Source: an uncultured Candidatus Saccharibacteria bacterium
Lineage (GTDB): Bacteria; Patescibacteriota; 4484-211; JAGQKX01
DNA length: 64,000 bases
Direction of reading: 5' to 3'
NCBI GenBank assembly: GCA_964392315.1
Contig: CAYMOT010000002.1
Coordinates: forward strand, 41,234-105,233
Shown: in pieces, positions 21,731-57,913 of the stretch
Numbering within the stretch: the stretch's first letter is position 1
Layout of the letters: every line of letters starts with the position of its first letter
Notes under the pieces: generated by a model
What the model saw: the letters and a program-made list of their open reading frames with translations, nothing else
What the model was told of the DNA's origin: nothing
Databases searched by the model: none
Program-made: the position numbers and the translations under genes

Positions 21731-21770
21731 AACAAGCGCGTGGAAACACGCGCTTTGTTATATTTCTACG
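21731..21770 (+). terminator. rho-independent terminator after the pilin gene
   Basis: AACAAGCGCGTG-GAAA-CACGCGCTTTGTT hairpin with a GAAA tetraloop, followed by TATATTTCT. It is preceded by a second perfect palindrome, TACAGTACTAGTACTGTA (21705-21722). Confidence 0.65.
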
Positions 21771-29598: not shown

Positions 29599-30296
29599 AA
29601 CAACAGATAAACAGCATACTCATTCCACTAGCCACTTTGGGAATCATAATAGCGATAGGTGTGTTCTGGACTATCCCAACAGTGAAAAATTACTTGCGGG
29701 TCAAAAGCGATATCGTGCTTGAACAAAAAGAACTCAATGAGTCGCTTATCCCACAGCGGGATATTCTCGCAAATGCAGAATCTGGAGAAATAGAAGCCGG
29801 GCAAGAGGTTTTGGGCAAAGCAATTCTTGCAGAGCCTGATCCTGGTTTACTCCTTGCGATTGTAGAAGATATTGCCAATACAACCGGGGTGACAGTAACA
29901 AATCAACAGTATATTGGAAAAGAGATTAAACAGCAGACGATTCAATGCAGCTTTCGGGTCTTTGGGCCGGTGAGTCGGGTTCGAGACTTTTTGGTACAGT
30001 TAGAAGCGGTTAACCCCACCATATATGTACAGGAAATTGCTAGCGTGCTTGCGGGCGTTGGAGAAGATGATTCTATCTATCCTGGTCTTACCATTATGAA
30101 TACATTTGTAACTGCTGAGGCACCATATGGCACGCAACCGGCAGCAATTGAAGGTTATGCTGCGCTTGTAGTCTCTGAAGAAGATAAACAACTTATACAA
30201 GACATTGAACTGAGGCATAATTACCTTGATACTCCACTCTACTACCAAACACATGGACCATTCCCTGCAGGGAAGCAAGATCCATTTACCGAATGA
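29595..30296 (+). CDS. pilO: PilO-like pilus assembly protein
   Basis: Single N-terminal TM, then a coiled segment and a periplasmic-type domain. Sits in the canonical pilMNO order. 233 aa. Confidence 0.5.
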   Translation: MKQQINSILIPLATLGIIIAIGVFWTIPTVKNYLRVKSDIVLEQKELNESLIPQRDILANAESGEIEAGQEVLGKAILAEPDPGLLLAIVEDIANTTGVTVTNQQYIGKEIKQQTIQCSFRVFGPVSRVRDFLVQLEAVNPTIYVQEIASVLAGVGEDDSIYPGLTIMNTFVTAEAPYGTQPAAIEGYAALVVSEEDKQLIQDIELRHNYLDTPLYYQTHGPFPAGKQDPFTE

Positions 30297-30311
30297 GAAA
30301 GGCAGTTAACC

Positions 30312-30839
30312 ATGGCGTTACAAGATATAAACCTCTTACCCGAACAAGCGATTGAGGCATTGCAGCATGATAAGCTGCGCAAACAGAAACTCTATTACCT
30401 CATTGCTATTGTAGTTTCTCTTCTTGTAGTGACGATCCTTAGTGTTTTTGTGTATCACGCGTATGTACAAACGGTAGAAGCAGAGCAAGAATTACTTGCA
30501 GAACAAGAAGCACGTTTAGAGAACCTTAACCCGCTATGGAACGAAATCATACAACTCAATACAGGTGTACAAATGATACCTCCTGCGAGAGCACAAATTA
30601 CTCAATTACGAAAAACACTCGAAGTGGTGACAACCGGTCTTGAAGGCCTTACTCTTTTACAATTTAACTATCCAGGTGAGGGAATATATGAATTGGATAT
30701 ACAAGCGCTCAACAAAGAAGAATCTAAGAGATATGTACAATACCTGCAAGAATCACTGCCTACAGCGCGAGTGGCACAGGTTGAATCAATACGAGAGCTC
30801 AATGAAATAATATATTTCACAGTTCGTATCGAATATTAA
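30312..30839 (+). CDS. second PilN-like protein (INLLP motif)
   Basis: MALQDINLLPEQ, then a TM helix LYYLIAIVVSLLVVTILSVFVY, 175 aa. Confidence 0.5.
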   Translation: MALQDINLLPEQAIEALQHDKLRKQKLYYLIAIVVSLLVVTILSVFVYHAYVQTVEAEQELLAEQEARLENLNPLWNEIIQLNTGVQMIPPARAQITQLRKTLEVVTTGLEGLTLLQFNYPGEGIYELDIQALNKEESKRYVQYLQESLPTARVAQVESIRELNEIIYFTVRIEY

Positions 30840-30871
30840 GTCTGTATTACGATAGGCTTAGTTTTTACACT

Positions 30872-31744
30872 ATGAAAGAACAACAAAAAGAACAAATACA
30901 TTCACCAACTCTACGGCAAGAACCTCCTCCTTCGTTGCCACCGCAGGATCCACCACAGTCTATGCTTGATACGATCTCGGGACAAGCAGTGGTAGAACAA
31001 GAACAAGAAACCGTGCAGAAAAAGAAGCGATTTTCTTTGCCTCGAATAACCCCTGAAATGTTTTTTGAGCACAGTCGTTTGAAGCGAAAGGTCAAATTTG
31101 TCATAGCCGGATATATAGTCTTAGTGGTAGTGCCGCTTATATATGGTTTCTATACACAGTGGCAAAAAAATAATGACTTAGAGGCCCAACGGGAACTCAG
31201 GGAACAACAATTCATTTTTCCGCTTACTACCCTTGATAATGCTGAGTACATCGCCACTCGGCAATTGTTGTACACGACGATGCAGGTAGAGCGTGATCCG
31301 GTGTATGCATTATATGCACTTGAACAGCTTGCAAGCCGTGCAGAGGTGAGGCTTATCAATCCGACATACAACATAGATACTTCAAAAACAGACAAACCGA
31401 TTGGCGTTCATGTCACTACCATTGTCAAGGGAACACACAGTGCACTGCTTACGTATCTCAAAGAGCTCGAGCAATTTCGGTATGTAATCACTATTGACCA
31501 GTTTGTAGTACGGGTTACTGATACGGGAGAATCGGAAGCGGATCTGGTATTGGAGTATGTATTTGCACCAAAGATTACAGAAGAACAAACAGAAATGAGT
31601 CAGAAACTGGCACAAGGTCTGCGGGTAGACTATCCAATAGCGGGTGCCGACACACTGATCGAACAGCTACAATCCTTTACAGAAATAATTATGGATAAAC
31701 TAGGAACATACGTGGTTGGGAAGGGAGATTTGTTCGCGTCGTAA
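30872..31744 (+). CDS. PilO/PilP-like single-TM pilus assembly protein with low-complexity Pro/Gln-rich N-terminus
   Basis: 290 aa with a TM helix near residue 95. Its position after pilMNO suggests a PilP/PilO-type component. No diagnostic motif. Confidence 0.35.
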   Translation: MKEQQKEQIHSPTLRQEPPPSLPPQDPPQSMLDTISGQAVVEQEQETVQKKKRFSLPRITPEMFFEHSRLKRKVKFVIAGYIVLVVVPLIYGFYTQWQKNNDLEAQRELREQQFIFPLTTLDNAEYIATRQLLYTTMQVERDPVYALYALEQLASRAEVRLINPTYNIDTSKTDKPIGVHVTTIVKGTHSALLTYLKELEQFRYVITIDQFVVRVTDTGESEADLVLEYVFAPKITEEQTEMSQKLAQGLRVDYPIAGADTLIEQLQSFTEIIMDKLGTYVVGKGDLFAS

Positions 31745-31754
31745 AGAAGAATCA

Positions 31755-32042
31755 CTATGCTTCGTCTTCGGGTAATTCGGTTGCTAGGGCATCACCTGAC
31801 CGATCGGGTTTCTCATTGGTGAGATCTAAATAGACACGTTTGCCTTCCTTTATAGCTTGTATCTTGATTAAATTTCGTATTGCGTTGATTACCTTTCCCT
31901 CTTTTCCGATGACAAGACCAGCATCGTTCGGGTCTACTGTGATATGAAATCGTACTGCCCCTTCCTCTTCTTCTTGTGTTATTGAAACATTTTCAGGATT
32001 CTCTACTATCTTCTTTACAATATACTCAAGGAAATCGTGCAT
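31755..32042 (-). CDS. khpA: KH-domain RNA-binding protein (KhpA/YlqC family)
   Basis: VIGKEGKVINAIRNLI KH core, 95 aa. Conserved position downstream of rpsP. Confidence 0.8.
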   Translation of the reverse strand: MHDFLEYIVKKIVENPENVSITQEEEEGAVRFHITVDPNDAGLVIGKEGKVINAIRNLIKIQAIKEGKRVYLDLTNEKPDRSGDALATELPEDEA

Positions 32043-32045
32043 AAT

Positions 32046-32282
32046 TTATGAGGTGTACTTCTTTATCAGGTCACGCACCGTATCTGTTGGTTGTGCTCCT
32101 TGTAAAAGCCACTTGTCGTATTGTTCTTTATTTACTTCAAAAACTTTCGGATCTACGAGTGGATCATAGTAGCCGAGGTACGCTATAGCTTTGCCGCCGC
32201 GTTTGCTTTTGGCATTCATTGCCGCAATTCGGTAGGAGGGTCTATGTTTTCTTCCAGTTCTGATGAGTTTTATCTTAACCAT
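32046..32282 (-). CDS. rpsP: 30S ribosomal protein S16
   Basis: MVKIKLIRTGRKHRPSYRIAAMNAKSKRGGKAIAYLGYYDP: the canonical S16 N-terminus. Confidence 0.95.
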   Translation of the reverse strand: MVKIKLIRTGRKHRPSYRIAAMNAKSKRGGKAIAYLGYYDPLVDPKVFEVNKEQYDKWLLQGAQPTDTVRDLIKKYTS

Positions 32283-32300
32283 ATCGTCGAGATTGTAACA

Positions 32301-32987
32301 TTAAGTTTCCCAGTCCTCAAGCGCAGTTTGGGCGGCTTCTATCTCTGCCTTTTGCTTACTCGATCCCTCCCCTGCCCCAACCTGTTTTTTGCCCAAAAAG
32401 ACGCCAACTTTGAAAGTTTTTTGATGATCAGGTCCCCACTCTTCCAAGACTTCGTAATGCGGTGTTACATTTAACACTTCTTGCGAAAGCTCCTGCAATT
32501 TGCTTTTCGCATCTTTATAGAGCTTGTTTTGGATTATGTGCTCAAGTTTTATGGTTACGTAGTTATGTACGACCTCCGTTACCTTTTGATAGCCGAATTC
32601 TAGATATATTGCACCAAGGAGTGCTTCAAACGTGTTGGCAAGCAGATATTCAGAATTTCTGCCATTGCTTGCTGCCTCTCCCCTACTCAGTAATAAATAT
32701 GCTCCCAAATCAAGCTGTCTGGCGCAATCGGCAAGGGATTGAGTATTTACAATAGCCGACCGATAGTTTGTGAGATCTCCTTCGGGGTTCTCGGGATACG
32801 TACGAAATAAGTGTTCAGACACGGCAAGTTCAAGGCAAGCATCCCCTAAAAATTCCAAGCGTTCATTAGATTGCAAGTGAAACCGAGGATTCTCGTTAAG
32901 ATATGAACGATGAATGAATGCGTTTAGCAGCAGGTCTTTATTTTGAAAATTGATGCCTAATTTTTCTTCTAAACTTTCAAGAGACAT
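32301..32987 (-). CDS. rnc: ribonuclease III
   Basis: ERLEFLGDACLELAVSEHLF catalytic signature plus a C-terminal dsRBD, 228 aa. Confidence 0.93.
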   Translation of the reverse strand: MSLESLEEKLGINFQNKDLLLNAFIHRSYLNENPRFHLQSNERLEFLGDACLELAVSEHLFRTYPENPEGDLTNYRSAIVNTQSLADCARQLDLGAYLLLSRGEAASNGRNSEYLLANTFEALLGAIYLEFGYQKVTEVVHNYVTIKLEHIIQNKLYKDAKSKLQELSQEVLNVTPHYEVLEEWGPDHQKTFKVGVFLGKKQVGAGEGSSKQKAEIEAAQTALEDWET

Positions 32988-33046
32988 AGGTAGGAATAAT
33001 ATACAAATAAGAAAATATGCAAATAGAATTCTGAATTAAATAGTTA

Positions 33047-33508
33047 CTAGTTCCCTTGGTTACTATTTTCTACGTGTTCTTTTACGACGGTGCCGAGAAC
33101 GCCATTAACAAACTTGCTGCTCGCGTCGCTCCCAAATTCTTTCGCGAGTTCTACCGCCTCGTCTATTGTAACTTTTACTGGTGCCTCTTTGCGATACAGC
33201 AATTCATAAATTGCTATACGAAGGATATTTGCATCAATACGCGAGATCTGATCTACCGGCCATTCAGGCGCACACTTTCCAATAATACTGTCAATTGACT
33301 CCTTATTGCCGATAGCGCCCCGTATGAGATCTTCTGCCATGTCGTATTTAACATTTTTTTCGGCATATACCTCCTCCATGCTTTGAAATGTCTTTTGGAT
33401 GAGATCATCAATTGTAGGTTCGGAGTCATCTTTTCTGATGCTTAATTGGTATAGCGTTTGAAGTGCAACTTTGCGGGCGAGGTGTCGTGGGTCTTTATTG
33501 GTTTTCAT
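33047..33508 (-). CDS. nusB: transcription antitermination factor NusB
   Basis: [13 protein letters not shown]... NusB helical-fold signature, 153 aa. Confidence 0.85.
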
Positions 33509-33729
33509 TATTGCTTTTTTGCACTATCGACTTTAGTCACTTTTGTGTCTGTTTCTAAAACTTGGATGCCGTTGTACATGCCACAATTTTTACAGACACG
33601 GTGGGGCAATTTGAGTGAACCACACTCGGTACATGGTTGTAGTGCGGGTAAGGAAAATTTATTTTGCCAGGCTGTGTGACGATGTCTGCGTCTTGTTAAA
33701 CTTGGTTTCTTTTTTGGTACTGCTGCCAT
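33508..33729 (-). CDS. rpmF: 50S ribosomal protein L32
   Basis: [23 protein letters not shown]-terminus and the zinc-ribbon [18 protein letters not shown]. The ORF is longer; I chose the ATG at 33729. Confidence 0.9.
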
Positions 33730-33832
33730 GGATAAAAATAGACAAATATGCCTGCCTGCGCAGGCAGGCAAATAAGCAAATTTGCAAATAATATCGGTGT
33801 TATTATAGCGAAATTACATAAAAAATCCAGCA

Positions 33833-34405
33833 CTAAACAGATATTGTGTAAAAACAGACTCCAGTTGTGCCGTACTTTCGGGGCTCTGAACGAACCCATA
33901 TGTTTCCTCGAATATCTCTAATCTGTGGTTGAGGAGTGTAGTGAGCATCATGTAGAAACACTAATGTCCCTTGTGGTTTCAGTATCTGTACAATGTCAGC
34001 TAATGTAAGAGTATCTGCCAATTTGTATGGTGGGTCTAAAAAAATGACATCGTATAGAACTGGGAATTCGCGTTGGACAAATGTATTTGCATTTGCTTGG
34101 ACTATCCTCGATTTCGTGTCAAAGCCTGTTTTTTGTAAATTCTCAGCAAGAATTTGTATGTGTGCTTTGTCTTTTTCGACAAAATCGACGTGGTGCGCAC
34201 CACGAGAGAGTGCTTCAATGCCGAGCGCGCCAGTTCCTGCGAACAGGTCAGCAACAAGCATGTTTTGATAGCCGACCTCGGACAAGTAGTTGCTTTCGAG
34301 CATGCTAAAAATTGCCAGCCGTACTTGGTTCTGGCTTGGACGGAGTGAGCGCTCTGCAGGGGCTTTGAGTTTGAATCCGCGGACCGATCCGCCTGTCACT
34401 TGCAT
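33833..34405 (-). CDS. rsmD: 16S rRNA (guanine966-N2)-methyltransferase RsmD
   Basis: DLFAGTGALGIEALSRGA SAM motif and the VIFLDPPY motif, 190 aa. Confidence 0.88.
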   Translation of the reverse strand: MQVTGGSVRGFKLKAPAERSLRPSQNQVRLAIFSMLESNYLSEVGYQNMLVADLFAGTGALGIEALSRGAHHVDFVEKDKAHIQILAENLQKTGFDTKSRIVQANANTFVQREFPVLYDVIFLDPPYKLADTLTLADIVQILKPQGTLVFLHDAHYTPQPQIRDIRGNIWVRSEPRKYGTTGVCFYTISV

Positions 34406-34450
34406 ACTTTTACAATAGTACTATTATATATATAGTCACCACTGCTTTCT

Positions 34451-35566
34451 ATGCAACGCTTTTTTAGTACAAAGCCTCCGCGTATTGCCCGTATTTTAGC
34501 GGGTACATTACTCCTTCTTGCTGCAATAGGAGTATCCATAACCGCCAAAAGCATAGATCCAGACCATTTGCGTGCGACTACGGCGTCTTTGTTGAATGGA
34601 GGAATTATTATTTCTGATGATCCAGGTGTTGGCATTATTGGAGATAGTAACAGTGATGAGTATAGAGGCGATGAAAACTTAGGTGGTGCTTTTAAAAAAG
34701 ATACACTCAACTGGGTTGAGCAACTTGCACAGAGTCGCTTGGTCAATTTTGGAAGCTGGACTGATAGTGCACGACCTGAACCCCGAAGAAAAGGATTCGA
34801 ATTCAACTGGGCTCGGTATGGGGCGAGAACGGCGGACTTGATAAATCAAGGGCAGCACACAGCAATAGCGGAACAAATAAAACAGGGTAAAATAAAGTTG
34901 GTCATTGTTCATATTGGTGCTAATGATTACGCACCGTACTATCCGGATGGCTATAATCCCATTTACTCTGGAACTTTAAGCGATACACAGATTTCCCAAA
35001 AAGTTAACGCAATTATCACAAACTTAGACACTGCCCTACGCACTGTTTCTCAGGCAGGTAATGGCCAAATAGGAATTATCGTTACTAATATCATGGATTG
35101 GAATCTGCACCCGCTCGTAAAGAGCAATTACCCTGACCAAGTTGGACGAGCGAGAGTAACCAGAGCAATAAATGAAACCAACGCTCGGATGGAAGCACTC
35201 GCCGCGAATTATAACGCCGTGTATAACGATCTTAATGCATTTGCGCATACCATTGTATCTAGACTTGATAAAAAGGGGCGGTATGTTGTTGGGGGAGAGT
35301 ATATTCGTGTACTGGCCATTGGAGATGAGCCACATAGAGGGTTTCTTGGTGATCAGATACATGCGGGGACTGTGTTAGAAGGGCTTTTTGCGAATGAATA
35401 TATCAAGCTATTTAATACAACGTATGGTTCGATAATTGGTTACACCATTCCACCATTGACAGAATTAGAGATTTTACAAAACGCTGGAATAGTATATCAA
35501 CCGCTTGAGTGTTTAAGGAAAGTCCGTTATTCTGTTCGTCTAGCGTGCCTGAAGAATCAACTATAG
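34451..35566 (+). CDS. secreted SGNH/GDSL-family hydrolase
   Basis: Signal/TM N-terminus, GDSNSDEY block I (catalytic Ser), IVHIGANDY block III, and DQIH near the C-terminus (catalytic His). 371 aa. Confidence 0.7.
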   Translation: MQRFFSTKPPRIARILAGTLLLLAAIGVSITAKSIDPDHLRATTASLLNGGIIISDDPGVGIIGDSNSDEYRGDENLGGAFKKDTLNWVEQLAQSRLVNFGSWTDSARPEPRRKGFEFNWARYGARTADLINQGQHTAIAEQIKQGKIKLVIVHIGANDYAPYYPDGYNPIYSGTLSDTQISQKVNAIITNLDTALRTVSQAGNGQIGIIVTNIMDWNLHPLVKSNYPDQVGRARVTRAINETNARMEALAANYNAVYNDLNAFAHTIVSRLDKKGRYVVGGEYIRVLAIGDEPHRGFLGDQIHAGTVLEGLFANEYIKLFNTTYGSIIGYTIPPLTELEILQNAGIVYQPLECLRKVRYSVRLACLKNQL

Positions 35567-35588
35567 TTCATCTGCATATAGCTTGTTA

Positions 35589-37553
35589 TTACTTATAAGT
35601 TGCAATTTCCAGTGCCTTCCGTGTATCCTCGATTAATTTGATATTGGTGATTTCTGCAAACCGTAACTCCCCTACCCCGTGCTGCTTAGTTCCAAATAAT
35701 TGGCCGGGTCCACGTAATTTTAAGTCAATCTCTGCGAGTTCTAATCCATTATGGTGGGTTTCCATTGCTTTGAGCCGTGTAAGTGCCAAGTCGTCATCTG
35801 TAGCAGTGAAAAGAAAACAATACCCTTGTTGTCCGCGTCTTCCCACCCTACCCCGTAATTGGTGGAGGGTAGATAAGCCAAAGCGTTCGGCATTTTCAAT
35901 GACAATTATTGACGCACCAGGTGCATCAATACCGACTTCCACTACCGATGTCGTGACAAGGATATCAATGTTCCCACTGCGAAATTGATCGATGATCTGA
36001 TTTTTTTGCTTTGCCGGTAGTCGACCATGAATAAGCGCAAGTCTTAGACTTCCAAATTCCTTTTGTAACCTCTCAAATTCAGATGTCGCTGCCTTAACGT
36101 CGGTGAGGGTTTCATGTTCTGATTCGTTGATAAGTGGATAGACAATAATTGCTTGAGGTGATCCGTTCATGTGCGAGATTTGTTCATGGATCCAGTTGTA
36201 TGAATCCTGTCTCTTTATTTGTGGTACCACCCATGTTTTCACCGGGAGCCTCCCGGGTGGCAACTCGTCAATAACTGATAAATCTTGGTCTCCATACAAC
36301 GTAAGTGCAATACTTCTTGGGATAGGTGTTGCGGTCATTGCGAGGACATGTGGCGTTATTTTCTGCCCTGTGACAAGTTGTGCACGTTGTTCTACCCCAA
36401 ATTTGTGTTGTTCATCTACGATGAGGAGCCCTAATCGCTCAATGGTGTCTTTCTGATTAAACAATGCGTGGGTACCGACAATGATGTCTGCAGCATGAAA
36501 CTCGTCTGTTTTAGTGCTTCCCGTCACGATAGCTATTGTCAGCGCATGTTCTTTGAACAGTTCTTGGAGTGTTGAAGCGTGCTGTTGGGCCAACACTTCT
36601 GTAGGTGCGAGTATGACGGTTTTATATCCATGTAGATGTGCAATATATGCACCAATTGCTGCGATGACTGTCTTTCCCGATCCGACATCTCCTTGTAGTA
36701 GCCTATTCATAGGCTGATTTTTTGATAAGTCTGTAAGGAGGTGTTTTGCCACACGATGTTGTGCATCGGTTAAGGTGAAGGGCAATTTGGCAATAAAATT
36801 AATTATCCCGTCGTTATGCTTAGCCATGTCAACAAGAAACGGTGCAGGTTGTTTATTCCATTGCATGCGACGCTTTTGGGATTCCTTTTGAATACTGAAC
36901 ACCTCTTCAAAAGCGAGCCGGTAACGCGCTTGTTCTGTCTTCGTCAGGTCTGTGGGAAAGTGCAGGATTTCGAGTGTTTCCACCAGCGTTGGTAAATTGA
37001 AGTCTTGCAAAATGGATTCGTGGAGCGTTTCGACCAGGAGGTGTTTATTTTTTTGCCACGCGCTTTTTACAATTTTAGCGAGCCAGCTGCTTTGTACACC
37101 TTCTGTCTCGGGGTAAATGGGCAGTACGTCGCCTATTGCAGGTTCGCCTTCATCAATCTTCTTCCATACTGGGGCGATGATTGCTCTCTTGCGGTCCCAC
37201 CATGAAACTTTACCAGAAGCACGAATCCGGTCACCTGCATATAATACCTTTGTCAAAAATACCTGGTTGAACCAAACAAGCTGTATTGAGCCCGTTTCAT
37301 CCTGTACCGTCGCGGTAGTAATTTTTTTGTGGCGGCGGGTATATGTATTCTTGATTTCAGTAATTGTGCCGGTTATCGTATACGTTTCGTCGATTTGTAT
37401 ATTTTTTATTTGTGCAACTTTACTAAAATCGAGATAACGATGGGGTATATGAAAAATGAGGTCGTATACCGTGAATATTCCCAACTTCTCAAGTCTTTTT
37501 GCGTACTTCTCCCCTACCCCAGATAGTGTAGTAACGGGATTAGTTAGTGACAT
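35589..37553 (-). CDS. recG: ATP-dependent DNA helicase RecG
   Basis: N-terminal wedge/OB domain, helicase motifs LLQGDVGSGKT, DEQHKFG and TATP, 654 aa. Confidence 0.92.
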   Translation of the reverse strand: MSLTNPVTTLSGVGEKYAKRLEKLGIFTVYDLIFHIPHRYLDFSKVAQIKNIQIDETYTITGTITEIKNTYTRRHKKITTATVQDETGSIQLVWFNQVFLTKVLYAGDRIRASGKVSWWDRKRAIIAPVWKKIDEGEPAIGDVLPIYPETEGVQSSWLAKIVKSAWQKNKHLLVETLHESILQDFNLPTLVETLEILHFPTDLTKTEQARYRLAFEEVFSIQKESQKRRMQWNKQPAPFLVDMAKHNDGIINFIAKLPFTLTDAQHRVAKHLLTDLSKNQPMNRLLQGDVGSGKTVIAAIGAYIAHLHGYKTVILAPTEVLAQQHASTLQELFKEHALTIAIVTGSTKTDEFHAADIIVGTHALFNQKDTIERLGLLIVDEQHKFGVEQRAQLVTGQKITPHVLAMTATPIPRSIALTLYGDQDLSVIDELPPGRLPVKTWVVPQIKRQDSYNWIHEQISHMNGSPQAIIVYPLINESEHETLTDVKAATSEFERLQKEFGSLRLALIHGRLPAKQKNQIIDQFRSGNIDILVTTSVVEVGIDAPGASIIVIENAERFGLSTLHQLRGRVGRRGQQGYCFLFTATDDDLALTRLKAMETHHNGLELAEIDLKLRGPGQLFGTKQHGVGELRFAEITNIKLIEDTRKALEIATYK

Positions 37554-37807
37554 ATGTGAGATTGTACCAAGCAGGCTTGATACGCTGTGTAGGGATGTTA
37601 CGTCGTGTACTTAAATGTAGAGAAGTACAGATAAAATAGGCATGAGAACCATGCTAATTGAAATAATTATAGCGAGTACGAGGAATATTTTGTGATGTCT
37701 TCTGAAAAACTTGAGCATACTCAAATTGTAATCAACAAATAATCAAATAGGCAAATATACAAATGAACGAAAAAACCGGTCTGCCGACAAACAAGCAATA
37801 ACCTAAT

Positions 37808-38995
37808 TTACTCAGAAATTATCTTGAAAAACGTTCCTTTACCTATTTTAACTATCGATTCTGTAGGTTGCACCATGTATTGCATATCTTGTACCTTTTC
37901 ACCATCTATGCTGACTCCGCCCTGTTCTATCAATCTCCGCGCCTCTGATTTGCTCGTAATTTGTGCATGCATGACCAGAAAATCGACCAAATCGAGTTGT
38001 TGATTAAGAGAAATAGTCGCAATATCTGTAGGTACCTCGTCACTTTGTACAACGCGTGAGAATTTATTGCCCGCATCATTTGCTTGATTTTCATCATATA
38101 ACCACGCAACTATTTTAAATGCTAGGTCTTTCTTAGCCTGCAATGGGTTTGTTTGCACGAGATGGGTCAATTCTTCCGTTTGCTCAGCGAAAATCATGTC
38201 GTAATAATGTGAAATAAGATCATCGTGTATGGACATGACTTTACGATACATTTCAAATGGTTCGTCACGAAGGCTGATAAAATTGTTTTTGCTTTTACTC
38301 ATTTTTTTCCCATCAAGTCCCATCAAAAACGGACACGTTATGACAAACTTGTCTTTGTCCTTTAACTTCTTAAGCAAATCTCTTCCAGCCAACATATTAA
38401 ACGTTTGGTCAGTGCCACCAACTTCCACATCAACATTCATCATTACACTGTCGTATCCTTGCATAAGTGGATAGAAGAATTCATGCATATAAATAGGCTT
38501 GTTCTCTTTGATGCGTTCTTGGAACATATCTCTCTCAATCATTTGCTGAAGAGTAAAATGTGAGGAAAGCTCGATTAGGTCTGTGAATGTCAACGGTGCG
38601 AGCCACTGGCTATTAAACTTCATTTCCGCAGGATTGTTTGGATCATCAAACTGGAGCACTTTGGAGATTTGCTCTTTATACAATGCAGCGTTTTTTTGTA
38701 CCTGCTCCTCGGTCATTTTTACCCGTTCTGACAATTGATCAGTGGGGTCTCCGATTCGTGCCGTGAAATCGCCCAACAAGAATATGACCTTGTGTCCGAG
38801 TAGCCGGAACTGTTCGAGTTTCTTGTATACTACCGCGTGGCCCAAATGGACATCAGGTATTGTAGGATCGATGCCAAGGTAAAAGGTGAGCACTTCTCCG
38901 CTGGCGAGCCTTTTTGCAAGTGCCTCCTTAGATGGGTAAATTTCTGCTATATTATGAGTGAGAAGTGAGTTTATTTTTTCGAGATCGGTAGACAT
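37808..38995 (-). CDS. tyrS: tyrosyl-tRNA synthetase
   Basis: HLGH-type motif (DVHLGHAV), KMSKS, and a C-terminal S4 domain. The ORF starts at 39058; I chose the ATG at 38995 (MSTDLEKINSLL). Confidence 0.92.
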   Translation of the reverse strand: MSTDLEKINSLLTHNIAEIYPSKEALAKRLASGEVLTFYLGIDPTIPDVHLGHAVVYKKLEQFRLLGHKVIFLLGDFTARIGDPTDQLSERVKMTEEQVQKNAALYKEQISKVLQFDDPNNPAEMKFNSQWLAPLTFTDLIELSSHFTLQQMIERDMFQERIKENKPIYMHEFFYPLMQGYDSVMMNVDVEVGGTDQTFNMLAGRDLLKKLKDKDKFVITCPFLMGLDGKKMSKSKNNFISLRDEPFEMYRKVMSIHDDLISHYYDMIFAEQTEELTHLVQTNPLQAKKDLAFKIVAWLYDENQANDAGNKFSRVVQSDEVPTDIATISLNQQLDLVDFLVMHAQITSKSEARRLIEQGGVSIDGEKVQDMQYMVQPTESIVKIGKGTFFKIISE

Positions 38996-39127
38996 GCAGT
39001 TATTGTAACATGGGAGAAATAAACCAATATACCAATACGCAAATAAGCAAATATGCAAATATGCAAATGAAAAACGATTTGCTTATTTTCACATTTACTT
39101 GTTTTATTGGTAAAATTACACAATAGT

Positions 39128-41785
39128 ATGGCAGGTCCTTCATTTCCCCGAAAATCTAAGGGTCATAGTGACCAATCCTACTGGGCGTCCCGTGCGAAGC
39201 GCTCTATTCGTCGTGCAAAACATACACGAAAGATGCGCGTGATGTCTATTGCGGCAACCGTAGTGATAGCGGGAGTATTACTGGCAACTGCCACAGGGGT
39301 GGGGGCAGTGGTTTACTTTAGTAAGGATCTCCCCTCTCCTGACAGGTTGACAGAACGTGAAATTGCCCAAACAACCAAGATTTACAGTAGGCAAGGTGAT
39401 TTGCTCTATGAAATATTTGATGAAGAGAAGCGCACATTAATTACTCTTGATCAGATACCTGAACATCTCAAACAAGCTACACTCTCAGCAGAAGATGCCG
39501 ACTTTTATAAACACTCGGGTTTTGATGTCATGGGAATTTTGCGTTCCGCATATTACATGATCTCGTCAGGTCAGATTCAGGGAGGCGGTTCAACCATTAC
39601 ACAGCAATTGGTCAAGAACGTCTTTTTGTCACCTGAGCGTACATTCACCCGAAAACTCAAAGAAGTCATTTTGGCAATGCAGCTTGAAGCAAAGTTCAGT
39701 AAGGATGAAATACTTCAAATGTACTTTAATGAAGTAGGATACGGAGGTAACTACTATGGTGTAGGTGCAGCATCAGAAGGGTATTTCGGTAAAGCAGTTG
39801 CTGACTTAACGCTTGAGGAGGCAGCATTTCTGGCGGGATTACCACAATCCCCCAGTCTATATAGTCCTCGAAGCGGAGATCCGGAGTTAGCGCTAGCACG
39901 GTATGAGTTGGTGCTTGATTTGATGAATAGGTTTGGGTACTTGACTGAGGAGCAAGCTAATACTGCAAAAGGAGTAGATGTACTCGCTGCCGTAAAGCCA
40001 CTTGATGCAAATATCCGCGCACCGCATTTTGTGTTTTACGTTCGGCAGGAACTCATGAAGCAATTTGGAGAAAAAACTGTCGAACAAGGAGGCTTAAAGG
40101 TGACTACAACCTTAGATATGGGTAAGCAAATCATCGCGGAGGAAGAAGTTCGGTTTCAGCTCGATCGACTTGCACAGCGAAAAGCAAATGTGAACAATCA
40201 AGCTCTGGTTTCAGTAAACCCCAAAACAGGTGAGGTGTTATCGATGGTAGGCTCTGCCGACTATTTTAACGAAGAAATTGACGGAGAGGTAAATGTGACG
40301 TTGGCTAGGCGTCAACCAGGTTCAGCTATCAAACCGATTGTGTATATCAGAGGATTACAGATGGGATATACAGCGGCCTCGTTTTTGCCTGACATTTCTG
40401 CGTGTTTCGGAATTGGTGGAGATGGTAAAGAATACTGTCCAGGCAACTCTGACGGACGGTTTTGGGGGCCGTTATCCATGCGGGAAGCACTTGCTAACTC
40501 CAGGAACACGCCTGCAGTGCGTATGGGACAGTTAATCGGGGTACACAATATCATTGAACAAGCACAGGAACTAGGAATTACCACACTTGATCAACCGGAA
40601 CGCTATGGACTTTCACTATCTTTGGGATCAGGCGAAGTAAAACCAATAGAATTGGCAAATGCATATGCAGCGTTTGCAAATAGTGGGCAACAATACGATC
40701 TCATCTCGATTCTAAAAGTTGAGGACAGTAGTGGTAAGGTGATTTTTGAGAATAAGCTTGATGAGCGAAAAGCCAAACAAGTTGTCCCCGCAGAGCACGC
40801 ATATGTTCTTACACATATCTTGTCAGATAATGAAGCACGTAAACGGTTATTTGGTGCGAATAACATGCTGGAGATAGGCCGCCCTGCAGGTGTAAAAACC
40901 GGTACTACTAACGACAACAAAGACGCCTGGACCTGCGGGTATGTTCCTCAGCTTGCGACCTGTGTATGGACGGGAAACACGGACAATACCCCCATGGCAC
41001 AAAATATCCAGGGATCAACTGGTGCTACTCCAACATTTCACCATTACATGCGTCGAGCACTAGAAGGGGTACCAGTTGAGGATTTTGTACGCCCTGCGGG
41101 TATCGTAGAAGCTACCGTAGATCGGCTTTCTGGAAAGTTACCGAGAGAAGGTGCATCCTATCCAACTAAGGTTGATGTATTTGTGCGAGGTACAGTACCG
41201 ACCGAGATTGACGATTTCCACCAAACCGTTGAAATCTGTACAAGTAAAGGACTCCTTGCCACGGATTACCATCGCCTTATCGGTGACGTTGAAAAGAAAA
41301 CGTATACCTATATCATCGAACCAAATCCATCTTTACAGAAATATTCGGATGAATGGATGTCAAAAACAGAAGGATATGGCAAACCACCAACAGAGACCTG
41401 TCCGATTATAGACGATCAAGGCAATCGGCTTGAAGGACCGTATGTACAGATCATCGCTCCTGCAGATGATACAGAACTTTCGGATACAACATTTCAAGTA
41501 ACGGCAGAAGCTTACAGTGAGGAGCGTATCCTGAAACTTGAATTTTATTGGGATGACACACTCGTAAAAACAGTGACATCAGCGCCGTATACGGTTGAGT
41601 TTTCGGTATCGCAGGACACCTCTGGTTCTCATTCGGTCAAGGTAGTTGCATTTGACGGTGCTGGTGACCAATCGGAAGATAGTGTGACGGTCAATTTTCC
41701 GGACGAAGATGAGGTGACTCCTACTCCAACACCGGAAGATGATGACGGCGGCCCTGGTATTTTCCCCTCAGGAATTTTTCAGTAA
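39128..41785 (+). CDS. class A penicillin-binding protein (PBP1A-type bifunctional glycosyltransferase/transpeptidase) with C-terminal Ig-like extension
   Basis: GT51 motifs EDADFYKHSGFD and GGSTITQQLVKN. Transpeptidase motifs SAIKP, SRN and KTGTT. N-terminal TM. C-terminal ~120 aa beta-rich domain. The ORF begins at 39107; the start is uncertain between 39107 and 39128. Confidence 0.85.
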   Translation: MAGPSFPRKSKGHSDQSYWASRAKRSIRRAKHTRKMRVMSIAATVVIAGVLLATATGVGAVVYFSKDLPSPDRLTEREIAQTTKIYSRQGDLLYEIFDEEKRTLITLDQIPEHLKQATLSAEDADFYKHSGFDVMGILRSAYYMISSGQIQGGGSTITQQLVKNVFLSPERTFTRKLKEVILAMQLEAKFSKDEILQMYFNEVGYGGNYYGVGAASEGYFGKAVADLTLEEAAFLAGLPQSPSLYSPRSGDPELALARYELVLDLMNRFGYLTEEQANTAKGVDVLAAVKPLDANIRAPHFVFYVRQELMKQFGEKTVEQGGLKVTTTLDMGKQIIAEEEVRFQLDRLAQRKANVNNQALVSVNPKTGEVLSMVGSADYFNEEIDGEVNVTLARRQPGSAIKPIVYIRGLQMGYTAASFLPDISACFGIGGDGKEYCPGNSDGRFWGPLSMREALANSRNTPAVRMGQLIGVHNIIEQAQELGITTLDQPERYGLSLSLGSGEVKPIELANAYAAFANSGQQYDLISILKVEDSSGKVIFENKLDERKAKQVVPAEHAYVLTHILSDNEARKRLFGANNMLEIGRPAGVKTGTTNDNKDAWTCGYVPQLATCVWTGNTDNTPMAQNIQGSTGATPTFHHYMRRALEGVPVEDFVRPAGIVEATVDRLSGKLPREGASYPTKVDVFVRGTVPTEIDDFHQTVEICTSKGLLATDYHRLIGDVEKKTYTYIIEPNPSLQKYSDEWMSKTEGYGKPPTETCPIIDDQGNRLEGPYVQIIAPADDTELSDTTFQVTAEAYSEERILKLEFYWDDTLVKTVTSAPYTVEFSVSQDTSGSHSVKVVAFDGAGDQSEDSVTVNFPDEDEVTPTPTPEDDDGGPGIFPSGIFQ

Positions 41786-41828
41786 TTTCAGTCAGGTAAT
41801 GAGTTTCAGTGAGGAATTTAGAGATTTG

Positions 41829-44228
41829 CTATTGGACCCTGCAGTCAAACTTGTTTTGTAATTCCTGGATTATTGCTTGTACATTATCTGCTATCTCTAC
41901 TTTGCTCAGGGACCGATCTGGAGCCTGATACGTTAAACGCATCGTAATTGCCTTTTGCTCCGCACCGAATTTTTCTGGATATTTTTGCACATGGTATATA
42001 GCAGCGTCTTGTAAGAACTCGGAACCACTTTTCTTTGCTATCTCTAGCAATGAGTCGAGTGAAATATCTTCATGAACTATACATGAAATATCAATTGCAA
42101 TAGAGGGGTGAGGTGAAACTGGTTTGTATCGCATACCCGTATCCGTTAATTCAAAAACTACATCTGCATTAAGTTCTGCCACGCCTACCGTTTGTGAGAG
42201 TCCAAAAGCAATTTGCACTTCAGGGTGTATTTCACCGATGTAACCAAGCAATTCCTCCTCCGCAAACACAGCGGCGGCACGTTGTTCGTCAAGTAATTGT
42301 AGAAAGGGATCGTGTGTTTTGGGTTGTTCATATCGTACGCCAGGAATATGCAAAGTTGCCAACAGCTGGTCAACGATACCTTTGATATGTGTGTAGCCAC
42401 CTTCTTTTTGGTAGAGGGCCATTGCAAGCGTATCTTCTTCACGCGGTAAATCAAATCCGTCTCTTTTAATTCTCCGTTCCAACTCAAATAACCGCACGGA
42501 ATTAAATGTGTTTTTATTGTGTGCGATATTTTCTAAAAGCTGTGGTACAAGAGATGGCCGAATATATTCTGCCTCAGGTGCGACAGGATTTGCCAATTTT
42601 ATTTCTAATGACTCCCCTACCCGACACTTATCGTAGAGTGCCTTACCCACAAAGCTATAATTATATGTTTCAGTGAACCCAAGACGCACAGCGAGCTGCT
42701 TAATTCGACGTTGCCACAATATGTGCTTATTTGCTGTAGCAGGTGATATATCACGGTATGGCAGTGTCGGGGTAATATTGTCATAACCGATAATGCGTGC
42801 AATCTCTTCAACAATATCTTCTGGAATAGTGAGGTCAGGTCTAAAGGTGGGCGGTACAGCTCCAAGATGTTTACCATGTTCTACTACTTCTATACCCAAA
42901 TGCGTAAGGGTCTTTTTGATTTCACTTTCATGTATCAGTTTTGTTCCACCAATCTTTTGGTTAATGTAGTCTGCGGAAAAAGGTATGATCCTCTCTTCGC
43001 GGCCGACGTAGGTCTGATCAGAGGTAAAATCTGCATCAAGTGAAGAGGTAGTAACGTCTCCATACTCTTTCAGTAACTCAAGTGCTTTTAATAATGCTGG
43101 TTCGGTCGTAGAAGGATCCTGATTTTTGGAAAACCTGATAACTGCCTCAGTCTGGAGTCCGAGCTGCCGAGAGGTTTTGCGAATAGTGAAATGTTCAAAA
43201 TTTGCTGATTCGAGTATGATACTGTTAGTAGTATCGGTTACTTCAGTATCAATGCCCCCCATGATGCCCGCGAGTGCTATTGGTTTTTCCTCATCAGCAA
43301 TTACGAGCATCTCCTGGGTTAATTCTCGCGTTTGTCCATCGAGTGTGGTGATTTGCTCGTGTGGAGTTGCAGTACGCACAATGATCGTATCAGATGCGAG
43401 TGTATTCCGATCGAACGCATGCAGTGGCTGCCCCATGTCATACATAATGTAATTGGTGATGTCTACAATATTATTAACTGGCCGTGTGCCTATTCTTCTA
43501 AGGCGTTGCTGCAACCAAAGTGGTGAAGGCTTTATAGTCACGTTTGGTATGATGATGCCAGTGTACCGGCGGCAAAGTTGTGCGTTTTGAATAGCAAGAT
43601 CCAACTCAATGTCCATGTCAAGAGATAGCGGGATTTTATCCGGCAATTTTTCGCTGAAAGAAGACCCAAACATCGTTGCTAACTCCCGTGCGATACCACG
43701 ATGTGAAAATGTATCAGGCCGGTGCGTCAGCGCCTTATTTTCGATCTCAATAATCACGTCTTTTGTTTCAAAGAGTGAGTCGAATCGTTCCCCTACTTTG
43801 ATACCCGGTTCTGCATTGAGTAGCATAATACCCGAGTGATCATTTGAAATTCCAAGTTCGCGGGGTGAACAAAGCATGCCGTGTGACACTTCCCCGCGTA
43901 CCTCACGTGCTTCAATTCGCAGGTCAGTATTAGGGAGCGTATTACCGACCAAGATCACTGGTACATAATCTCCCACTGCGATGTTTGGTGCGCCGCAGAC
44001 AATAGAAAGGGTTTCTTTTCCAACATCTACTTTAGTAAGCTGCAGTTTGTCTGCATTGGGGTGTTTTGCGATATCTACAATCTTGCCAATTACTACGCCG
44101 TCAAACGTGTCCACTATCTCGTGGATATCCTCAACTTCTGCCAGCGAAGCAGAAATCCTATTAGCGAGAACCGCGGGAGTTTCGGTGACGTGGGTATATT
44201 CGTTTAACCAATTAAGAGAAAGTTTCAT
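41829..44228 (-). CDS. pheT: phenylalanyl-tRNA synthetase beta subunit
   Basis: MKLSLNWLNEYTHV canonical N-terminus with tRNA-binding, B3/B4, B5 and FDX-ACB domains in order, 799 aa. Confidence 0.95.
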   Translation of the reverse strand: MKLSLNWLNEYTHVTETPAVLANRISASLAEVEDIHEIVDTFDGVVIGKIVDIAKHPNADKLQLTKVDVGKETLSIVCGAPNIAVGDYVPVILVGNTLPNTDLRIEAREVRGEVSHGMLCSPRELGISNDHSGIMLLNAEPGIKVGERFDSLFETKDVIIEIENKALTHRPDTFSHRGIARELATMFGSSFSEKLPDKIPLSLDMDIELDLAIQNAQLCRRYTGIIIPNVTIKPSPLWLQQRLRRIGTRPVNNIVDITNYIMYDMGQPLHAFDRNTLASDTIIVRTATPHEQITTLDGQTRELTQEMLVIADEEKPIALAGIMGGIDTEVTDTTNSIILESANFEHFTIRKTSRQLGLQTEAVIRFSKNQDPSTTEPALLKALELLKEYGDVTTSSLDADFTSDQTYVGREERIIPFSADYINQKIGGTKLIHESEIKKTLTHLGIEVVEHGKHLGAVPPTFRPDLTIPEDIVEEIARIIGYDNITPTLPYRDISPATANKHILWQRRIKQLAVRLGFTETYNYSFVGKALYDKCRVGESLEIKLANPVAPEAEYIRPSLVPQLLENIAHNKNTFNSVRLFELERRIKRDGFDLPREEDTLAMALYQKEGGYTHIKGIVDQLLATLHIPGVRYEQPKTHDPFLQLLDEQRAAAVFAEEELLGYIGEIHPEVQIAFGLSQTVGVAELNADVVFELTDTGMRYKPVSPHPSIAIDISCIVHEDISLDSLLEIAKKSGSEFLQDAAIYHVQKYPEKFGAEQKAITMRLTYQAPDRSLSKVEIADNVQAIIQELQNKFDCRVQ

Positions 44229-44229
44229 G

Positions 44230-45267: not shown

Positions 45268-45375
45268 AGATGATGATGATGGTAATGCAAATATATACAA
45301 ATATGCAAATGTAAATTTGCTTATATGCCTGCCTGCGCAGACAGGTAATGTTTGATCATTTGCTTATTCCGTTTT

Positions 45376-45582
45376 TTACGAAAACAACGCAGCCATTCCG
45401 CGTAGAATGAGATTGAGTATTGTGAAGATTACGGTAATGACAATTGAAGGTACGAGGTACTTGGGTTTAATCAATTCTCCGAGTGCGTAAAAAAAGTCTT
45501 TACGATATTGAAACGTAATAAATGCGAATAGAACCTGAAGAAGTCCAAAAACTAGTAGACCTTGTTTAAGAATGGAGCCCAT
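45376..45582 (-). CDS. hypothetical small two-TM membrane protein
   Basis: 68-aa ORF that is strongly hydrophobic. Lies between rplT and pheS. Confidence 0.4.
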   Translation of the reverse strand: MGSILKQGLLVFGLLQVLFAFITFQYRKDFFYALGELIKPKYLVPSIVITVIFTILNLILRGMAALFS

Positions 45583-45636
45583 ATGATGTAAAGGAATAAA
45601 GGCAAAACGTTAAGAGATTAATGCTCGGCACTTCTC

Positions 45637-45999: not shown

Positions 46000-46004
46000 A
46001 TCGT

Positions 46005-55568: not shown

Positions 55569-55619
55569 GGAAGAATAAGCAAATACTACAAATAAACTTG
55601 CCTACCTACGCAGGCAGGT

Positions 55620-56732
55620 CTATTTGCTTATTTCATTCTTGGGCATGTTCCATTCTACCAATTGCCTGATTACCTTGTCACGGCGCATCAGGTATCGCAA
55701 GTGTTCTTTTCGGTCGGGGTCATTGAACAGCTGTTTTGCATTTGGTTCCTTGCTTGCATCAATTTCAGCTTTTACTTCTTCATCAGAAACGCTTATATTT
55801 TCAAGTTCTGCAATCTTTGCCGTTATAAACTCTATAGTATATTCGTGTTCCAGGTCATCTTTCCATTGCTTTTTTAATTCCTCCACTGTAGTTTGCTGTT
55901 TCTTTGAGTAACCTTCTAGGTCTAATCCCATTTTTTCTAGCTCTTCAGTCTTATGTTTCTCCTGGTGCTCTAAATCGTGTTGAATGAGCTTTTTTGGAAG
56001 TGATAAATTAGTCTTTTCTTTCAGTGCATTTAAAACTTCTTGGGTAAATTTATTACCGGATATATAAAAACGCTCGAGGGTTAAATTAGCTTGTAATCGT
56101 TGTGTAAGATCATCGAGATTTTCAGCCCCTAGTGTAATTGCCCATTCGTCATCTGGCTTGTCTTTAGTGTTTGCTAGAGGGGCTTGTTTTTTATGACTGG
56201 TGGCTTTGTCGTTTGCTTCTTCCAAAGTCGTTGCAGTCTCGATTTTCGTGCCTTCTTCCTTAGTGCGCTCTTTCCACGTAGCAAAAAGCTCATCTAATGC
56301 TTTTTGTGTATCTTCGGGCGTGATTGTGGGCTCTTCGTATGTAACGCCGAGGCTTTTATAATCAGGAAGTTCAGGCTCTGGTCGCACTGTTACCACAAAG
56401 ACGAATTCAGGATTTCCCTCCCCTTTCATGAGTGCTTCTTCATTATTAATTTTTATCTGAGGCTGTATAAGAGGAAATATTTTCTCGTCTTGCAATATCT
56501 TCCGGTATGCACCCTCCACTAATTGCTCCAAAGTCTCCTGAAATAATCGGTACTCCCCTACTCTTTTTCTGATTTCATTCACCGGTGCCTTGCCTGGCCG
56601 AAATCCGGGTATATTGATATCACGACCAAGGAGTTCTAACGCAAGGGTTTGAGCAATTTTCGTATCACTTGCGTCGGTCGTTACCGTGAATTCTATCTCG
56701 CAATCAGGTAAGTCTTTTCTGGTGATGTTCAT
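55620..56732 (-). CDS. tig: trigger factor (ribosome-binding and chaperone domains; short)
   Basis: N-terminal ribosome-binding domain with the GFRPGKAP signature loop. 370 aa, which is short, so the PPIase domain may be reduced. Confidence 0.85.
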   Translation of the reverse strand: MNITRKDLPDCEIEFTVTTDASDTKIAQTLALELLGRDINIPGFRPGKAPVNEIRKRVGEYRLFQETLEQLVEGAYRKILQDEKIFPLIQPQIKINNEEALMKGEGNPEFVFVVTVRPEPELPDYKSLGVTYEEPTITPEDTQKALDELFATWKERTKEEGTKIETATTLEEANDKATSHKKQAPLANTKDKPDDEWAITLGAENLDDLTQRLQANLTLERFYISGNKFTQEVLNALKEKTNLSLPKKLIQHDLEHQEKHKTEELEKMGLDLEGYSKKQQTTVEELKKQWKDDLEHEYTIEFITAKIAELENISVSDEEVKAEIDASKEPNAKQLFNDPDRKEHLRYLMRRDKVIRQLVEWNMPKNEISK

Positions 56733-57814: not shown

Positions 57815-57816
57815 CC

Positions 57817-57912: not shown

Positions 57913-57913
57913 C

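Follow-up and report, generated by a model that had tools for sequence, protein, structure and literature searches.

Analysis of a 64,000-nucleotide stretch of contig CAYMOT010000002.1 (hereafter the window) showed three copies of a 20-bp palindrome built around an 18-bp core, CCTGCCTGCGCAGGCAGG, at sites where the flanking genes are all encoded on the minus strand. Copy 1 (33750..33769; GCCTGCCTGCGCAGGCAGGC) is a perfect 20-mer with its core at 33751-33768. It lies between RsmD (33833-34405), whose stop codon is 63 nt away, and rpmF, whose ATG (33729-33727, minus strand) is 20 nt away and which is followed by nusB and rnc. Copy 2 (45327..45346; GCCTGCCTGCGCAGACAGGT, two mismatches; core at 45328-45345) is located in the minus-strand series infC, rpmI, rplT, a conserved open reading frame (ORF) of 68 aa (45376-45582), pheS and pheT, 29 nt past the stop codon of the 68-aa ORF and with the pheS ATG (45267) 59 nt further. 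Copy 3 (55600..55619; GCCTACCTACGCAGGCAGGT, three mismatches; core at 55601-55618) starts 1 nt past the stop codon (55620-55622) of tig (55620-56732), and the 5' end (55567) of tRNA-Val (55491-55567) follows 32 nt downstream. The core of copy 2 carries a single change, a plus-strand G to A, and that of copy 3 two changes, each of which gives a G·U pair in minus-strand RNA. Coordinates, sequences and gene context of the three palindromes had been reported in an initial annotation and were confirmed here, as was their GC-rich contrast with the surroundings (G or C at 16 of 20 positions, against a genome GC content of 42–44%). A search for the 20-mer at ≤3 mismatches retrieved the three window sites only, and nothing in 100 dinucleotide-preserving shuffles. 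No core copies beyond the three occurred in the window at ≤4 mismatches, and the two extra matches at five mismatches were at shuffle level (5 found, 0.9 expected). Half-sites outside the three copies were not enriched in the window (12 found, 9 expected). An Rfam search returned tRNA only and no known RNA family over the palindrome sites.

The initial annotation had also described each palindrome as fused to a promoter-like motif, and this association is real: every 20-mer copy has an exact ATTTGCTTAT exactly 2 nt from its edge. The motif is common in the window (52 matches at ≤1 mismatch vs. 8 expected), but adjacency as a mere by-product of this abundance was rejected by a placement test, in which 1.2% of random intergenic placements had such a neighbour, corresponding to ~1.6e-6 for all three sites. 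Of the 14 exact motif copies found in the window, five are ≤15 nt from a palindrome. At copy 1, the exact motif occupies 33772..33781 (minus strand), and a degenerate version, ATTTGTCTAT, starts 2 nt past the other edge (33738..33747, minus) and stops 8 nt short of the rpmF ATG; this copy is likely the -10-like element of a leaderless rpmF mRNA and also the U-rich tail of the hairpin described below. Copy 2 is flanked by two plus-strand motifs, one 2 nt ahead of it (45315..45324) and one 11 nt past it (45358..45367). At copy 3, the motif 2 nt past the palindrome (55622..55631, plus) overlaps the last tig codons on the opposite strand, and a minus-strand motif 15 nt away (55575..55584), which ends 7 nt before the tRNA-Val 5' end, is likely the tRNA-Val promoter element.

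The motifs form part of 8-nt-periodic arrays of ATTTGCNT/ATTTGCTTAT, often divergent, that occupy about a dozen window spacers. At all three sites the core is in the same register, after the G of one array unit (ATTTG^CAT, ATATG^TAA and ACTTG^TCT). Removal of the copy 1 core in silico left an unbroken 8-nt array of ATTTGCTT, ATTTGCAT and ATTTGTCT (junction ATTTG^CAT). Sites 1 (minus) and 2 (plus) agree at 16 of 18 nt on the upstream side of the palindrome, their downstream flanks are also alike, and the two look paralogous over ~40 bp; at site 3 the motif orientation is opposite to that at sites 1 and 2. Two histories would fit these observations: the arrays could be preferred targets in this genome, or a motif-palindrome composite could have been copied at least once.

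The three sites were compared with those of relatives. The nearest named match of PheS (68% identical) is labelled 'candidate division WWE3', and the window organism is WWE3-like. The syntenic tig–tRNA-Val spacer lacks the palindrome in relatives whose Tig is 69–72% identical (L227/228, L229/230 and L231). In relatives with 79–80% identical PheS (L233 and L236-238), the stop of the 68-aa ORF is only 10 nt from the pheS ATG and the junction contains neither palindrome nor motif array; in the window, the spacer of ~105 nt consists of the palindrome and ATTTGCNTAT units. The RsmD–rpmF spacers of relatives L234, L239 and L242 also lack the palindrome; relatives' spacers at this junction are 50–450 nt long and carry a TTGACA...GCTATAAT box, one of them canonical terminators as well. 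Relatives obtained through the neighbouring PBP1 gene were unsuitable for spacer comparison, the closest being only ~50% identical. Copy 1 is identical across five independent assemblies and copy 3 in two others, and a strain with 99% identical PheS (L235) retains copy 2 with the same variant base and a SNP nearby; an assembly artefact is therefore excluded. The three copies were gained after the split from relatives at 69–80% protein identity and are fixed in the species. The initial annotation had proposed that lack of conservation in relatives would point to chance or a local duplication. Orthologous sites in the relatives do lack the copies, but this absence reflects gain by insertion rather than chance.

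The same core was found far beyond the window. One genome per species (596 Gb in total) was scanned with the pattern GCCTRCCTRCGYAGRYAGGY, which allows 64 variants and retrieves near-perfect copies only; the resulting loci counts are lower bounds and the taxonomic proportions approximate. The unit that emerged is the 18-bp perfect palindrome CCTGCCTGCGCAGGCAGG, with at least 119 loci. At least 70 of these are labelled Patescibacteria or candidate phyla radiation (CPR), and the exact 18-mer recurs in dozens of unrelated CPR bacteria; among the matches listed, the labels include WWE3, Saccharibacteria, Nomura-, Kaiser-, Uhr-, Woese-, Beckwith- and Dojkabacteria, Microgenomates and Paceibacterota, among others. 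A further ~19 listed loci belong to low-GC metagenome-assembled genomes (MAGs) labelled 'bacterium', and some Bacteroidota among the matches listed also carry the identical 18-mer. GC content was below 0.46 at 62 of the 119 listed loci, a range in which composition predicts ~0.04 matches per Gb. The CPR share of the scanned collection is estimated at roughly 10 Gb, so that about 0.4 CPR matches would be expected at this rate vs. the at least 70 loci found. The perfect palindrome made up 55 of the 124 listed sites (44%) although the pattern permits 64 variants, and the flanks of the loci were unrelated across the listed matches. The 30 listed high-GC loci were not clearly over background. In IMG/VR, 25 loci were found, mostly at GC 0.58–0.67; because control palindromes with shuffled half-sites reached 11, 0 and 0 loci there, neither the high-GC nor the viral matches were counted as evidence.

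Pairs of filled and empty sites indicated how the core is added. Duplicates of tRNA-Gln in three loci (L020, L023 and L066) read ...TCG, then the core CCTGCCTGCGCAGGCAGG, then TCTAATGG..., with an intact tRNA a few hundred bases off reading ...TCGTCTAATGG; tRNA-Leu of locus L092 showed the same filled and empty pattern at GTAGA^CGCGC. In both tRNAs, the filled copy differs from the empty one by exactly 18 bp. Intact tRNAs detected with ARAGORN adjoin some copies of the palindrome, and none overlapped one. Similarly, the TopA genes of two Nomurabacteria (L119 vs. L079, 81% identical) differ by a gap of exactly 18 bp, the filled site reading GAACCTAGAGA, 18 bp, CGAAAAATTAGT and the empty site GAACCAAGAGA directly joined to CGAAAAACTAGT. 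The only reading common to all filled/empty pairs is that the 18-mer itself was inserted; the junctions are ambiguous by ≤1 bp, and neither the tRNA copies nor TopA showed a target duplication longer than 1 bp. In an unbiased 18-mer scan, the base before the core was a purine at 19 of 20 sites and the base after it a pyrimidine at 16 of 20. A 1-bp target duplication fits 16 of these 20 sites and is inseparable from the purine/pyrimidine rule. Past the -1 purine and +1 pyrimidine no target consensus was found, positions -2 to -12 being at background across 102 low-GC sites.

Most copies elsewhere reside within genes, rough gene calls placing 110 of 162 sites in ORFs. When the low-GC coding copies at listed loci were restricted to those spanned by an ORF of ≥150 aa, 63 remained, 51 of them in the frame xxC-CTG-CCT-GCG-CAG-GCA-GGx, which encodes (G/S/D/N/R)-LPAQAG; the other two frames encode PACAGR or CLRRQ. 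Because the palindrome has no stop in any frame and an 18-bp insertion is frame-neutral, this bias points to selection on the encoded peptide. The in-gene inserts were compared by local BLASTP with homologues from other loci and from the window. Clean six-residue gaps were obtained for TopA, alanyl-tRNA synthetase (AlaRS; L085 vs. L029), HtrA (L054 vs. L113) and an RNase J-like protein (L067 vs. L049), and gaps of 5–10 residues for threonyl-tRNA synthetase (ThrRS; L032 vs. L112), EF-Ts, EF-G and a Mur ligase; when ThrRS was aligned with the homologue encoded in the window, a six-residue gap lay nearby. In UvrA and GyrB (L111 vs. the window's GyrB) the insert sits within a longer insertion. The family shows in-frame insertions in unrelated genes that are absent from homologues, which matches what has been described for the Rickettsia palindromic elements (RPEs) and the intragenic REPs discussed below; the window copies are intergenic.

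In single genomes, the 18–20-bp core was also embedded in longer, genome-specific repeats with shared flanks. Such composite repeats were seen in Sphingobacteriales bin43 (L004/L062 and L022/L050/L110), BR1S70218_bin_133 (L012/L069/L082) and a Dojkabacteria MAG (L027/L053/L096), and some of them form an extended hairpin (gtcATTCCTG...CAGGAATccag) or run into long T-runs. The core serves as a module in these differing composite repeats. On two GC-rich IMG/VR contigs (L130:5704-6377 and L131:5599-6272), two copies with inverted extended flanks, TGTTTCGCGGG and CCCGCGAAACA, bracket a 201-aa ORF. An arrangement like that of REP-associated tyrosine transposases (RAYTs; REP, repetitive extragenic palindromic element) was considered and set aside for these loci, since the ORF has no Pfam or PHROG match and the contig is GC-rich and viral. 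The literature searched contained no description of the 18-mer, the LPAQAG peptide, or palindromic or mobile repeats in CPR.

Transcribed into RNA, the window copies can fold. Minus-strand (gene-strand) hairpins were predicted at -16.8, -10.8 and -11.7 kcal/mol for sites 1, 2 and 3, and plus-strand hairpins were weaker (-7.6 at site 2 and -9.0 at site 3). All three internal substitutions give G·U on the gene strand and an A·C mismatch on the other. The stems of 7–9 bp form a G+C-rich stem-loop of the size expected of a terminator (at least 5–7 bp), with the T-rich motif 2 nt past the stem as the U-rich tail. On the minus strand, a scan of region 30001-50000 for the terminator consensus recovered site 1 (5 T in 8). 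At site 3, direct reading showed a U-rich but interrupted minus-strand tail, AAGUUUAUUUGU; with its flanks this site reached -23.4 kcal/mol, and an A-rich tract, hairpin and U-rich tract are present on both strands. Unique G+C-rich hairpins were observed at other gene ends (2374-2417, 21734-21755 and 60005-60025), from which hairpin 3' ends appear to be in use in this genome. The one at 2374-2417, between two plus-strand genes, is a perfect 20-bp-stem hairpin, CACCTAAAGGAAATCCCCGC-TTTC-GCGGGGATTTCCTTTAGGTG, the strongest in the window and unrelated to the palindrome. For the terminator-promoter junction cassette suggested by the initial annotation, the local anatomy fits, with a hairpin and a T-rich motif within 2 nt; its function is our inference.

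We consider it probable, though far from settled, that the 18-bp palindrome is a REP-like, non-autonomous mini insertion element with a terminator- or insulator-type role at the window sites. Its description as a small repeat element, one of the options of the initial annotation, is strongly supported by the occurrence of the same 18-mer across CPR lineages and in frame within genes. In this scheme, a trans-acting enzyme or a templated repair process would insert the hairpin, and a mobile hairpin landing beside a T-rich promoter motif would create a terminator-promoter junction. The transcribed core would then fold into a 7–9 bp hairpin followed by the U-rich motif. The junctions concerned would be RsmD|rpmF, rplT operon|pheST and tig|tRNA-Val, where the copies most likely serve now, like REPs, as terminator, insulator or RNA 3'-end stabiliser between transcription units.

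Several observations weigh against this interpretation. No transposase, RAYT or GIY-YIG gene was present among the window ORFs examined. Copy number is low: the 64 kb contain three copies, and a single distinct one was found in 1.05 Mb of related CPR DNA (unselected DNA from a metagenome scan with the neighbouring PBP1 gene), and the high-GC and viral matches add nothing clearly above background. Letter-for-letter identity across phyla is hard to explain, as it needs frequent horizontal transfer or very strong constraint. Within the window, repeated insertion at a fixed array register and duplication of a motif-palindrome cassette are not separable. As for the role in RNA, the G·U argument comprises three substitutions only (p = 0.125); coding copies elsewhere show 10 C-to-T vs. 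3 G-to-A changes on the sense strand, a pattern that mutation bias could likewise produce. Site 2 was recovered by the terminator scan on the plus strand only, with a shorter stem, and thus has its better U-tail antisense to the genes. At site 1 the hairpin lies between two motifs, downstream of a conserved GCTATAAT box, and may therefore be part of a 5' leader. Finally, relatives have no palindrome hairpin at the equivalent junctions; since they do without it, its function may be incidental.

Among known systems, mobile GC-rich palindromes of organelles offer a parallel. Yeast mitochondrial GC clusters, Neurospora PstI palindromes and Allomyces double-hairpin elements occur in small AT-rich genomes, where they flank tRNA genes and gene ends, are sometimes located in coding or rRNA regions, and neighbour free-standing GIY-YIG endonuclease ORFs that duplicate a portion of a host gene; to our knowledge, their mechanism of spread is still not known. 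They resemble the 18-mer in these respects but are eukaryotic, usually measure 30–50 bp or form double hairpins, and have no sequence relationship to it. Like intrinsic terminators, the window sites have a G+C-rich stem-loop at a gene 3' end, followed 0–2 nt on by a T-rich, if interrupted, tract, and the A-tract, hairpin and T-tract of site 3 are arranged as in a bidirectional terminator. Terminator-like repeats include SPRITE and inverted pairs of DNA uptake sequences (DUS) in Neisseria. Ordinary terminators, however, are not sequence-identical between loci, let alone phyla; the U-tracts of the 18-mer sites are interrupted, and relatives lack a hairpin at the same junctions. DNA uptake sequences would be expected at about one per kb, in contrast to three in 64 kb here and ~1 per Mb in relatives. 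Unlike a transcription-factor operator, the 18-mer is not conserved at orthologous promoters, and its half-sites are at chance level in the window. It differs from transposable elements of the miniature inverted-repeat type (MITEs) in its far smaller size and in lacking a target-site duplication of ≥2 bp, filled and empty pairs differing by exactly the 18-bp core.

The closest bacterial counterparts are REPs, together with bacterial interspersed mosaic elements (BIMEs), and RPEs. REPs are palindromes of 20–40 bp that for the most part directly follow ORFs and are considered to function as RNA; intragenic examples occur in uvrA, uvrD, polymerase and tRNA-synthetase genes (PMC3733652). Like the 18-mer, REPs and BIMEs are short, G+C-rich, dispersed palindromes thought to form RNA hairpins in termination or mRNA stabilisation; REPs are found mostly between genes read in the same or converging directions, and the gene classes that hold intragenic REPs are also targeted by the 18-mer. 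The differences are nonetheless considerable. The 18-mer has neither a GTAG or CGTC tag nor a conserved flank (102 sites), is a perfect palindrome of 18 bp with few copies per genome where REPs number hundreds, and is mostly intragenic where REPs are predominantly extragenic. It spans phyla, whereas most REP families are species- or genus-specific, and the window ORFs scanned contain no RAYT. RPEs are selfish repeats found in frame in unrelated housekeeping genes, where they are translated and tolerated (PMC10969869). Both RPEs and the 18-mer occur in this way in reduced genomes of host-dependent bacteria (PMC10969869), but RPEs measure ~100–150 bp, comprise several families and are confined to Rickettsia, whereas the 18-mer amounts to six codons of one sequence, superphylum-wide. 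The 18-mer thus works like a REP or an RPE and yet fails the tests that define REPs.

Other explanations of the palindrome were weighed against the same data. The initial annotation had offered a protein-binding operator, in which the duplex palindrome would bind a homodimeric regulator, or a nucleoid or recombination protein, that controls rpmF-nusB-rnc, pheST and tRNA-Val. Dyad symmetry that is perfect through the centre, which an RNA hairpin would not need, is in keeping with this, as are the fixed 2-nt spacing to the promoter-like motif at all three sites, the position of the palindrome at sites 1 and 3 (roughly -14 to -47 of the downstream motif) and the translation-related nature of all neighbour genes. 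We nevertheless regard an operator as quite unlikely, given that the same promoters in relatives (69–80% identity) lack the palindrome, isolated half-sites are at chance level in the window, the motifs flanking site 2 point away from pheS, and no candidate regulator was identified. Elsewhere, moreover, the 18-mer lies mostly inside unrelated coding sequences with a frame bias, which is not the distribution of an operator. A purely local origin would have a motif-hairpin terminator-promoter cassette arise once and be duplicated twice, with the matches in other genomes representing convergence on a (GCCT)n/(AGGC)n hairpin. The shared flanks of sites 1 and 2, the embedding of all three copies in lineage-specific motif arrays and the low complexity of the half-site would all agree with it, and the total number of matches in 596 Gb is of the order that composition predicts for the degenerate pattern. 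Convergence cannot, however, yield at least 70 CPR loci where ~0.4 are expected, and it leaves unexplained the 44% share of the perfect variant and the clean 18-bp additions in housekeeping genes and tRNA copies; the reversed motif orientation at site 3 also means that this site is no simple cassette copy. The data already point towards a strong CPR-specific excess confined to this 18-mer, and a local origin is very unlikely in our estimation.

Another possibility is a DNA-level site belonging to a selfish or defence system. It would serve a homodimeric nuclease of the homing or restriction type (e.g., a small GIY-YIG enzyme) as target or immunity site, or act as a recombination or uptake signal, with copies generated through break repair instead of transposition. 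Homodimeric nuclease targets are typically 18–20 bp long with perfect two-fold symmetry, and the palindrome has both this length and this symmetry. At four loci, involving two tRNAs and two phyla, the core interrupts a duplicated tRNA fragment beside a GIY-YIG ORF, and GIY-YIG ORFs are ~10-fold denser in palindrome loci than in 1.15 Mb of unselected CPR DNA, a comparison confounded by lineage. A precedent is T4 SegB, a homing endonuclease of the GIY-YIG type that works within a tRNA gene cluster (PMC2330249). Yet a GIY-YIG ORF lies ≤400 bp away at only 5 of ~125 sites and none is found in the window, so that GIY-YIG as a general neighbour was dropped and these genes were kept as a lead, the sole one to a mobilising enzyme; in addition, the density of the palindrome is far too low for an uptake signal. 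A nuclease or signal site is, on balance, unlikely. An adapter- or assembler-made palindrome, or a random match, is hardly credible at all. Library and assembly errors can make short perfect palindromes, and nearly all matches are in MAGs; against this stand the absence of any match in 100 shuffles, the identity of copies in at least five independent runs or assemblies, the same variant and a nearby SNP in the 99% identical strain, the divergence of two of the window copies and an in-gene reading-frame bias that cannot come from an artefact.

The four loci with small GIY-YIG ORFs (PF01541) beside a tRNA fragment or second tRNA copy are L020:1718-2105, L066:389-760, L023:6740-7200 and L092:4827-5300. 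The tRNA is tRNA-Gln in the CPR loci (L020, L066 and L023) and tRNA-Leu in a Saprospiraceae MAG (L092). In each case, the copy on the GIY-YIG side is interrupted at the D-arm by the 18-bp palindrome, and the intact tRNA nearby is without the core. From their sequence, these loci look like a homing-endonuclease cassette carrying a replacement tRNA segment.

If the preferred reading of the 18-mer as a mini insertion element is taken further, CCTGCCTGCGCAGGCAGG could be an active, horizontally spreading mobile element of 18 bp, the smallest mobile DNA known, whose machinery is possibly GIY-YIG-linked or works through a hairpin oligonucleotide or templated repair. Such an element would leave no target duplication and would target promoters, tRNA copies and essential genes across CPR phyla, adding an LPAQAG loop to the proteins. 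We put this stronger version forward tentatively, as a possibility that we doubt somewhat more than we believe it. CPR/Patescibacteria have tiny, streamlined genomes that are thought to be very poor in repetitive or selfish DNA. What is unusual about the palindrome is its size of 18 bp, its letter-for-letter identity across a superphylum and its frequent in-frame residence in essential genes. That a single 18-bp palindrome recurs unchanged across CPR and is tolerated in TopA, EF-G, gyrase, UvrA and aminoacyl-tRNA synthetases implies that either insertion proceeds by a mechanism not yet recognised or the constraint across phyla is unusually strong. The element could serve as a marker of recent insertion, and perhaps of horizontal exchange, in uncultured lineages, and six-residue LPAQAG 'insertions' in protein annotations should be recognised as DNA-level events. 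The pheS spacer, 10 nt in relatives vs. ~105 nt in the window, provides a testable case in which insertion of a hairpin near a T-rich promoter motif could uncouple an operon.

The 8-nt arrays are located at 7365-7448, 16080-16143, 16895-17073, 19889-19965, 33007-33024, 39035-39086, 45301-45367, 48866-48883 and 55575-55631. At least four genes have the gene-proximal motif copy ending 8–9 nt before their ATG (7458, plus strand; GyrB at 16070; 16886; 19975). Together with the 8 nt ahead of the rpmF ATG (degenerate ATTTGTCTAT) and the 7 nt ahead of the tRNA-Val 5' end, this spacing of 7–9 nt suggests a -10-like promoter element with leaderless transcripts. Density of ATTTGCTTAT at ≤1 mismatch was 0.81 per kb here vs. 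0.1–0.27 per kb in relatives at 70–80% identity, which carry the TTGACA...GCTATAAT box in place of this lineage-specific motif.

Some further features were observed in the window and its relatives. The 68-aa ORF in the rplT–pheS interval (45376-45582, minus) is hydrophobic and matched no Pfam family; its sequence and position are kept in L233 (8182-8388) and L236 (4781-4990), and it is probably a real small membrane protein. From ~57000 to 64000, GC content rises from ~0.42 to 0.53–0.57, and the ORFs have no Pfam matches except one cold-shock domain (63450-63761, minus). An independent assembly (L225) runs without a break through the start of this GC-rich region as far as 59732, and the region may be a foreign island. 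In one relative (L234:6480-6930), the RsmD–rpmF spacer of ~450 nt contains two canonical terminators and two TTGACA...TATAAT-type boxes, which could bracket an unannotated small RNA gene. Past tRNA-Val of another (L229:3385-3560), the tRNA 3' end GGTTCGAGTCCAGGCGCGAGCACCA recurs ~130 nt later, a repeat of the kind left by an element that has integrated at the 3' end of a tRNA.

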